A stretch of 36,019 nt of DNA, taken from the IMG/VR virus record IMGVR_UViG_2537561980_000006. The stretch is one strand, 5' to 3'. The translations under genes were made by a program, and so were the position numbers. Positions 12,656 through 12,965 of this stretch are shown here, in pieces. The notes below the pieces were generated by a model, which was not told the DNA's origin, searched no databases, and saw only the letters and a list, made by a program, of their open reading frames with translations. The stretch's first letter is position 1; each line of letters starts with the position of its first letter. Origin of the DNA: a virus (lineage: Duplodnaviria; Heunggongvirae; Uroviricota; Caudoviricetes).

Positions 12656-12731
12656 GGCCCTTTAGCTCAGTGGTGAGAGCGAGCGACTCATAATCGCCAG
12701 GTCGCTGGTTCAAATCCAGCAAGGGCCACCA
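12656..12731 (+). tRNA. tRNA with CAU anticodon (Ile2-lysidine type or Met)
   Basis: Cloverleaf folded by hand: acceptor GGCCCTT/AAGGGCC, loop CUCAUAA, T-loop TTCAAAT, 3' CCA; close to E. coli ileX-type sequence as I recall it. Confidence 0.8.
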
Positions 12732-12732
12732 G

Positions 12733-12809
12733 CCGCCACTAGCTCATCAGGAAAGAGCGTCAACCCTTTAAGTTGAGTGTGCGAGGTTCGAGTCCCCGGT
12801 GGCGGTCCA
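12733..12809 (+). tRNA. tRNA with UUU anticodon (Lys-like) and unusual C at position 33
   Basis: Acceptor CCGCCAC/GTGGCGG, anticodon stem TCAAC/GTTGA, loop CCTTTAA, T-loop TTCGAGT, 3' CCA. Confidence 0.6.
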
Positions 12810-12811
12810 GT

Positions 12812-12887
12812 GCCGACTTAGCTCAGTAGGCAGAGCAACTGACTTGTAATCAGTAGGTCACCAGTTCGATTCCGGTAGTCGGCACCA
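12812..12887 (+). tRNA. tRNA-Thr (UGU)
   Basis: Acceptor GCCGACT/AGTCGGC, anticodon stem ACTGA/TCAGT, loop CTTGTAA, T-loop TTCGATT, 3' CCA. Confidence 0.8.
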
Positions 12888-12890
12888 TAT

Positions 12891-12965
12891 GCGGGTATCG
12901 TATAATGGCTATTACCTCAGCCTTCCAAGCTGATGATGCGGGTTCGATTCCCGCTACCCGCTCCA
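12891..12965 (+). tRNA. tRNA-Gly (UCC)
   Basis: Acceptor GCGGGTA/TACCCGC, anticodon stem TCAGC/GCTGA, loop CTTCCAA, T-loop TTCGATT, 3' CCA. Confidence 0.8.

Follow-up and report, generated by a model that had tools for sequence, protein, structure and literature searches.

The tRNA cassette and its setting

The DNA considered here, a 36,019-nucleotide stretch recorded in IMG/VR as IMGVR_UViG_2537561980_000006 and called the window throughout, is a lambdoid Escherichia coli prophage integrated at serU, beside mtfA. Between its antiterminator Q gene and its holin gene lies a cassette of four tRNA genes (Table 1). Three of the four probably form a rare-codon supply module, of a type already known. 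An earlier note, made from the sequence alone, had proposed a four-tRNA cluster with the anticodons CAU, UUU, UGU, and UCC at 12656-12965, and both ARAGORN and Rfam recover it there. ARAGORN finds exactly four tRNAs in the window, all on the plus strand, and each passes the Rfam RF00005 gathering threshold of 29 bits (72.5, 44.4, 71.4, and 65.6 bits in gene order). The genes are separated by spacers of 1, 2, and 3 nt, and the CCA end is encoded in every one of them. All four anticodons pair with A-ending codons (P of about 0.011 if tRNA species are drawn at random, a value that rests on our own count of 14 A-ending-pairing species among roughly 40 in E. coli). The cassette is already annotated in hundreds of RefSeq genomes and a few phage records; a literature search found no paper describing this version of it or the anticodon switch discussed below.

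From position 1277 on, the window is 99.9% identical to the prophage of the porcine enterotoxigenic E. coli (ETEC) strain ETEC1747. Gene annotation was taken from that copy, which is in register with the window, and checked against the window's own open reading frames (ORFs). In strain CV839-06, the tRNA region is 100% identical to the window; indels elsewhere shift its gene coordinates.

Table 1. Features of the Q-to-lysis junction in the window
Feature	Position	Strand	Evidence	Remark
Antiterminator Q gene	11772..12461	+	Pfam PF06323 Phage_antiter_Q, E 2e-89; annotated likewise in RefSeq ETEC1747 copy	Directly upstream of cassette
P1, promoter-like site TTGCAA-17-TATATT	12445..12473	+	Consensus scan	Overlaps end of Q
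Hairpin followed by UUUUUU	12525..12555	+	Fold -16.8 kcal/mol, z -3.9	Candidate terminator
P2, sigma-70-like site TTGCAA-17-TATTAT	12618..12646	+	Consensus scan	Ends 9 nt before first tRNA
tRNA-Ile2, anticodon CAU	12656..12731	+	ARAGORN, Rfam	Identical to Stx-phage ileZ
tRNA with anticodon UUU ("Lys")	12733..12809	+	ARAGORN, Rfam 44.4 bits	Relative of Stx-phage tRNA-Arg(UCG)
tRNA-Thr(UGU)	12812..12887	+	ARAGORN, Rfam	Near-copy of host thrU
tRNA-Gly(UCC)	12891..12965	+	ARAGORN, Rfam	Near-copy of host glyT
Weak terminator-like hairpin followed by UUUUAU	12989..13013	+	-10.4 kcal/mol, z -2.1	Just past last tRNA
Strong intrinsic terminator	13233..13260	+	-12 kcal/mol, then U7	In 656-nt spacer
Holin gene, first late gene	13622..14014	+	Annotation transferred from ETEC1747	Intact ORF in window

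Two promoter-like sites precede the cassette. P1 is a candidate for the Q-specific late promoter pR', and the hairpin that follows it may be the intrinsic terminator of that promoter, tR'; this hairpin is bidirectional, since the scan flagged it on the opposite strand. The spacer of Shiga toxin (Stx)-converting phage 2851 is comparably laid out, as read from the alignment and not from a promoter scan of the 2851 locus. P2 makes the dedicated promoter suggested for the cluster in the earlier note plausible. It is followed by the G+C-rich stretch CCTGCGCCC, and the block from its -35 element to the first tRNA is identical in phage PPompW and almost identical in 2851, in which two bases are changed just before the tRNA. 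Phage 2851 has a different Q gene, and its Q-to-tRNA spacer is unrelated to that of the window outside the P2 block and the Ile gene, ileZ. Because only these two elements match across otherwise unrelated spacers, P2 and ileZ travel as one module. P2 is likely a dedicated, Q-independent tRNA promoter.

Downstream of the cassette is a 656-nt non-coding spacer (12966-13621) that contains no ORF of at least 60 amino acids and holds three terminator-like hairpins, the third of which lies just ahead of the holin gene. Only 17 of the cassette-bearing E. coli genomes also match the sequence of this spacer.

Origins of the four tRNAs

A CAU anticodon can belong to either an Ile2 or a Met tRNA, and the earlier note had assigned this one to the Ile2 type. 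The assignment stands. The gene is identical to K-12 ileX at 68 of 76 positions and to metT/metU at 54 of 78, and it shares with ileX the acceptor pairs C4-G69 and C5-G68, whereas metT has U4-A69 and A5-U68. Ikeuchi and colleagues reportedly found in 2005 that TilS separates Ile2 from Met by these C4-G69 and C5-G68 determinants. Identical RefSeq copies are labelled tRNA-Ile by the Prokaryotic Genome Annotation Pipeline (PGAP). Judged by these features, the CAU tRNA is of the Ile2 type and not Met, and it is predicted to need lysidine at C34 in order to read AUA. At 76 of 76 positions it matches the Stx phage 2851 tRNA-Ile as well as the gene called "tRNA-Met" in PPompW phages, and this ileZ gene is nearly invariant among IMG/VR loci (151 of 162 copies identical).

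The third and fourth genes resemble host genes instead. The Thr gene differs from K-12 thrU by one D-loop change (75/76) and has an identical anticodon arm; the Gly gene differs from glyT at two positions (73/75), which together form one compensatory acceptor pair, C6-G67 to U-A. Of the cassettes in the 167 loci sampled from IMG/VR, roughly 100 include Thr and Gly genes; 69 of these have a Thr gene that is 100% identical to thrU, and 63 have a Gly gene that is 100% identical to glyT. In the host thrU-tyrU-glyT-thrT-tufB operon, the two counterparts, to which the phage genes are 99% (Thr) and 97% (Gly) identical, stand in the same order, but the layouts differ: the host has thrU, 8 nt, tyrU, 116 nt, and glyT, and the phage has Thr, TAT, and Gly, with tyrU and all flanking and spacer sequence missing. 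On this evidence, the Thr and Gly genes are captured from the host without tyrU or its surroundings. The K-12 operon that was examined has one annotated copy of thrU and one of glyT. Genome-wide they are single-copy genes, Ile2 has two host genes, and tRNA-Lys has six.

The second tRNA has the anticodon of tRNA-Lys and little else of it. Its best matches are phage relatives, at 75/77 and 65/77; all others reach at most 68%, and lysT is absent from its seven closest matches. The 65/77 relative is the tRNA-Arg(UCG) of Stx phage 2851, and with the family of that tRNA it shares the unusual C1-G72 pair, the discriminator U73, and the T arm. All five stem differences from the 2851 tRNA-Arg(UCG) keep or improve pairing in the UUU tRNA. 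In 19 distinct members of the Arg(UCG)/UUU family, standard pairs fill 96% of pair cells. From the Arg subfamily to the UUU subfamily, both partners have changed in two pairs, 7-66 (U-A to C-G) and 30-40 (G-C to A-U). The anticodon loop, CCUUUAA, is the host Lys loop CUUUUAA with C33 replacing the near-universal U33, and both C33 and the UUU anticodon are invariant across all sampled copies. The discriminator A73 is an identity element for lysyl-tRNA synthetase. Here U73 stands where tRNA-Lys has A73, and the T stem contains an A.C mismatch. Set beside the lysT family, the gene has the UUU anticodon and lacks lysT homology, A73, and U33. By descent, the UUU tRNA does not belong to the Lys family; it is related to the Stx-phage tRNA-Arg(UCG) and has switched its anticodon. 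Taken together, the comparisons make the cassette a mosaic: ileZ and its promoter come from a phage lineage, the Thr and Gly genes were captured from the host, and the UUU tRNA has switched its anticodon.

Other loci contain further departures from these patterns. In Escherichia phage SerU-LTIIb (KU052038, locus L007), a type II heat-labile enterotoxin (LT-II) phage, the gene at 1122-1197 is annotated as Arg (TCT) and matches the thrU-like Thr tRNA at 72 of 76 positions, which looks like another case of anticodon switching, from UGU to UCU, within this group of cassettes. In that phage, moreover, a partial holin gene separates two "X-Gly" tRNA pairs arranged in tandem. In IMGVR_UViG_2778261535_000013 (L021), an 82-nt tRNA-like gene, for which the ARAGORN call is Val(aac), combines the acceptor stem and T arm of the Arg(UCG)/UUU family with a completely different anticodon arm, and may be either another remodelled family member or a degenerate one. 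In two loci of the PPompW type (L008 and L015), which have Ile-UUU-Arg(UCU) cassettes, the UUU copies carry a 1-nt D-stem deletion, and the Arg(UCU) gene next to them is two bases short at its end, where an ISEc20 insertion follows; this suggests decay in that lineage.

The tRNA cassette of Stx-converting phages

The closest known system is the cassette of the Stx-converting phages (933W type; examined in phage 2851, FM180578), whose tRNA genes are named ileZ, argN, and argO. The original proposal that these tRNAs serve rare codons is said to be that of Plunkett et al. in 1999. Like that cassette, the one in the window occupies the slot directly downstream of Q, begins with an identical ileZ behind a near-identical promoter block, has a second tRNA from the same family (65/77), and follows the same rare-codon logic. 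Unlike the Stx-phage order of Ile2(CAU), Arg(UCG), and Arg(UCU), its second tRNA has UUU with C33 and not UCG, and Thr(UGU) and Gly(UCC) take the place of Arg(UCU). Moreover, in Stx phages, toxin genes occupy the position equivalent to the spacer at 12966-13621, whereas in the window no toxin genes follow the cassette, and the 656-nt spacer leads to the lysis genes.

Codon usage of the prophage

Codon usage was compared between 49 prophage genes (9,429 codons) and 84 annotated K-12 genes (28,066 codons), and 59 codons were ranked by the phage-to-host ratio of their per-thousand frequencies. The ranking is led by AGG (9.6), followed in order by AGA (6.2), ATA (3.5), CGG (2.95), ACA (2.6), CGA (2.2), and, at rank 7, GGA (2.0). 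Of the four cognate codons that the earlier note had expected to be enriched, ATA, ACA, and GGA are, and AAA, at rank 24 (1.10), is not. Within amino-acid families, the odds ratios are 4.8 for ATA (Fisher, p 3e-18), 2.7 for ACA (p 1e-13), and 2.3 for GGA (p 2e-10), and the three also differ gene by gene (Mann-Whitney p of 0.001, 1.4e-8, and 3.6e-5, respectively). The odds ratio for AAA is 0.82, and its share of Lys codons goes from 0.73 in the host to 0.69 in the prophage. For four codons picked at random, the probability of three or more ranking in the top 7 of 59 is 0.004.

The broader idea that A-ending codons organize the cassette does not hold. As a class they are not enriched: 6 of the 14 are depleted or unchanged, namely CAA (0.47-fold), CTA (0.49-fold), GAA (0.81-fold), GTA (0.82-fold), CCA (0.90-fold), and TTA (0.92-fold). 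The AT-rich gene cited as an example of foreign-composition cargo (7929-8825, GC 37%) does contain 9 ATA and 16 AAA codons among 297. A skew specific to such cargo or to this prophage is rejected by the late structural genes and by phage lambda. The early region has a third-position GC content (GC3) of 0.46 and the highest use of ATA and ACA, and the late genes have a GC3 of 0.58 (host, 0.57), yet their use of ATA, ACA, and GGA is roughly double that of the host. The profile of lambda, a phage with no tRNA genes, is nearly the same, with phage-to-host ratios of 3.7 for ATA, 2.5 for ACA, 2.0 for GGA, 9 for AGA, and 7 for AGG. Because late genes and lambda share it, the skew is a general lambdoid trait toward rare E. 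coli codons.

Lambdoid cassettes variously carry Ile2, Arg-UCG, Arg-UCU, Thr-UGU, and Gly-UCC. The codons that these tRNAs read (AGG, AGA, ATA, CGG, ACA, CGA, and GGA) rank first to seventh by enrichment in this prophage, and in lambda all seven are among the first eight. The UUU anticodon stands outside this enriched set.

Distribution and variation of the cassette

With a match counted when it covers at least 80% of the cassette query, the four-tRNA cassette is present in 600 of 5,426 complete E. coli genomes (11%, or about one in nine), and the strains that bear it come from many sources, not from pathogens alone. The same arrangement is the commonest among the 167 sampled IMG/VR loci, where it accounts for 93, ahead of Ile-Arg-Arg (52) and Ile-UUU-Arg (12). 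From these two counts, the cassette is retained in many lineages. Its composition is fluid, with Ile-Lys-Arg, Ile-Arg-Arg, Ile-Thr-Gly, and other versions.

The UUU tRNA is found in 793 genomes, with an identity of 99% or more to the gene of the window in only 279 copies. Copies of at most 97.4% identity carry no PGAP annotation in a spread sample of 16 rows, the D stem has lost 1 nt in 14 of the phage copies sampled, and two of three full-length phage records leave the gene unannotated.

Probable supply of rare-codon tRNAs

The reading that we favor, and consider probable for three of the four genes, is that the cassette supplies tRNAs for codons that are rare in the host and common in the phage. 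We infer its expression, the processing and charging of its tRNAs, and the benefit to the phage along the following lines. As an accessory tRNA operon at the Q-to-lysis junction, the cassette would be transcribed from the sigma-70 promoter 9 nt upstream of the first tRNA, and in the lytic phase, read-through by Q-modified polymerase that started at the late promoter would probably contribute as well. The product would be a single precursor in which four tRNAs stand 1-3 nt apart, and RNase P and 3' exonucleases would cut the mature tRNAs from it. Ile2, Thr(UGU), and Gly(UCC) would serve as additional copies of minor E. coli tRNAs, each with one or two host genes, so that the prophage copy would double the host gene dosage or add half to it, and phage replication would multiply it further. 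The extra tRNAs would then relieve decoding bottlenecks at ATA, ACA, and GGA, which phage proteins use at 2-3.5 times the host frequency.

A role of this kind has been described for phage tRNAs in general, as compensation for codon usage, by Bailly-Bechet et al. (2007, as cited in PMC7946995 and PMC10264068). Like the tRNAs of that account, three of the four here match codons that the phage uses significantly more than its host; unlike them, the UUU tRNA is a misfit, tRNAs for AGG and AGA are missing, and lambda shows the skew without any tRNA genes. The codon-supply module proposed in the earlier note is accordingly supported for the Ile2, Thr, and Gly genes and not for the UUU tRNA or for AGA and AGG, which go unserved.

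Several points weigh against this account. Since lambda has the same skew without tRNAs, the cassette is dispensable and its benefit may be small. AGG and AGA, the most enriched codons of all, have no tRNA in it. Codon supply does not explain the fourth tRNA, which is a misfit because AAA is unenriched and host tRNA-Lys is encoded by six genes, five of which are found in one K-12 locus. Finally, the conservation of the promoter may reflect mere recent transfer of the whole module, because ileZ itself is 100% identical.

Phage tRNAs and anti-phage nucleases

A second explanation, which we hold to be unlikely, is that the cassette replaces host tRNAs destroyed by the anti-phage tRNA nucleases of competing P2 and P4 elements, with the UUU tRNA acting as a cleavage-resistant Lys decoder on a non-Lys body. 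Nuclease-resistant phage tRNAs are known: T5 encodes tRNA-Lys, tRNA-Thr, and tRNA-Asn active against AriB of the PARIS system (PMC12409363), and coliphage tRNA-Thr(UGU) acts against P2 OLD (PMC12445682). Foremost among the targets of AriB are the anticodons UUU and UGU (PMC12409363). The classic system directed against lambda, P2 OLD, kills by cutting mainly tRNA-Thr(UGU), and does so at paired CNG motifs of the anticodon stem; cells are rescued only by those phage Thr tRNAs whose motifs are altered, and overexpressed host thrU gives little or no protection (PMC12445682).

Two of the four cassette anticodons, UUU and UGU, lie side by side; both are prime AriB targets, and UGU is also the prime target of OLD. 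The UUU tRNA keeps the host Lys loop except for U33C and lacks the AriB site, reading UAAGUU at positions 36-41 where the host reads UAAUC|A, so that positions 39, 40, and 41 differ; U39A alone abolishes AriB cleavage of the host tRNA. Both CNG motifs of OLD substrates are likewise missing from it, and its stems have stayed paired through the anticodon switch, with 96% of pair cells standard and two compensatory pair changes.

The Thr tRNA behaves otherwise. Its anticodon arm, identical to that of thrU, retains both CNG motifs and the AriB site, and most phage copies are 100% thrU; it should therefore be as nuclease sensitive as thrU itself, and a copy of thrU is what barely protects, if at all, against OLD. 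As candidates for nuclease-resistant variants, the Thr and Gly tRNAs are both rejected, having host-identical anticodon arms and being 100% host in most copies. Ile2 and Gly, moreover, are not among the nuclease targets named in PMC12409363 and PMC12445682. With the Thr tRNA predicted to be fully sensitive, protection against nucleases fails as an explanation of the cassette as a whole, and the UUU tRNA is the only remaining candidate for it.

For that tRNA the indications conflict. Unlike the resistant tRNA-Lys of the T5 type, it is built on an Arg-family scaffold with C33 and U73 and is not a diverged tRNA-Lys. Its U73, its T-stem A.C mismatch, and C33 as an anti-determinant for N6-threonylcarbamoyladenosine at position 37 (t6A37) speak against a working Lys decoder; on another tRNA, C33 keeps the E. 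coli enzymes from forming t6A37 (PMC8887486). About two thirds of the genomic UUU copies are variants, in addition to the unannotated copies and the 14 D-stem deletions described above.

A translational role of another sort may be considered for the UUU tRNA. The tail assembly chaperone gene (ORF 24213-24584) ends in GTT AAA AAA AAG TAG, and the T ORF (24608-24886) lies in the -1 frame. The lambda-type slippery site GGGAAAG is not present in this chaperone gene; A AAA AAG is found there instead, and the A AAA AAG within 24572-24584 is predicted to be a dnaX-like programmed frameshift site that tRNA-Lys(UUU) decodes. In ETEC1747, the chaperone gene is different by 1 nt near this A run and is annotated as a pseudogene. 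It is conceivable, though improbable, that the UUU tRNA has one of two special functions. Either an Arg scaffold was switched from UCG to UUU to decode Lys codons and escape the anticodon-stem Toprim nucleases (PARIS AriB and P2 OLD) of competing P2 and P4 elements, or the C33 loop, probably without t6A37, tunes the A AAA AAG -1 frameshift (24572-24581) that would set the ratio of the tail chaperones G and GT.

Possible neutral inheritance or benefit to the lysogen

Alternatively, the cassette may be a passenger, inherited by mosaic recombination with the Q-lysis junction and of no meaningful benefit, in which the UUU tRNA is a decaying relic kept folded so that its neighbors can be processed. 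The UUU gene invites such a view: it has the lowest score of the four (44 bits), C33, U73, and the T-stem A.C mismatch, it is often mutated or unannotated, and two of three full-length phage records omit it. With spacers of only 1-3 nt, a tRNA shape needed merely to process the neighboring genes could explain its conserved fold. The fluid composition of the cassette and the ability of lambda to manage without tRNAs, despite the same codon usage, point the same way. Set against this are the match of the anticodons to the most enriched codons, which is unlikely by chance (P = 0.004), the near-invariance of ileZ (151 of 162 identical), the retention of the cassette in 11% of complete E. coli genomes, and the invariance of C33 and UUU in all sampled copies. 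We rate neutral carriage as more doubtful still than a defense against nucleases.

Least probable is that the tRNAs are made mainly to aid the host, in the lysogen, in translating rare-codon-rich acquired genes such as those of ETEC virulence plasmids: they would be made in the lysogen because P2, a stand-alone sigma-70-like promoter downstream of a strong terminator, would be independent of Q and accompanies the cassette across phages with different Q alleles, porcine ETEC make up most of the closest full-length matches listed, and one extra gene would double the dosage of thrU and glyT (taking these to be single-copy genes), but the cassette occurs in E. coli of many sources and not in pathogens alone, its position at the head of the late operon suits use by the phage at least equally, and the proposal is a variant of codon supply, not an exclusive alternative to it.

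Other features of the prophage

Downstream of the first holin gene lie a second holin gene and an M15 endolysin gene, followed by terminase, HK97-type head genes, and lambda-like tail genes. At its left end (1-1276), the window differs from ETEC1747, which has an exonuclease, DUF1482, and dicB there; the window instead has insertion sequence (IS) remnants, with two plus-strand ORFs containing DDE_Tnp_1 domains (15-335 and 383-901) and a match to IS10 RNA-OUT at 1162-1231. Two genes that are intact in ETEC1747 are split into overlapping ORFs in the window, the AT-rich hypothetical gene at 7929-8825 and the tail-tip gene J (30544-33939); the breaks are either 1-nt indels from sequencing error or real pseudogenes. 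The window also encodes a hok/sok type I toxin-antitoxin locus (8916-9241; sok RNA 120 bits, hokD coding sequence 9086-9241) and, on the minus strand at 1422-1473, the small RNA DicF (77 bits), both of which are typical of Qin/Rac-like lambdoid prophages.

Significance for temperate coliphages

The cassette is an ordinary, widespread accessory module, and what it fits is the rare-codon demand of lambdoid phages in general and not, as first proposed, the A-ending codons of cargo genes. Its makeup also indicates how such cassettes may be assembled, in that host tRNA genes are captured verbatim and existing phage tRNAs switch anticodon, from Arg(UCG) to UUU here and from Thr(UGU) to Arg(UCU) in the related LT-II phage. 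The use of tRNAs against PARIS or OLD has so far been shown only for virulent phages such as T5, and the UUU tRNA bears on whether temperate coliphages use them in this way. If either of the special functions considered for it is true, the UUU tRNA would be a temperate-phage tRNA with a specialized role other than codon supply.

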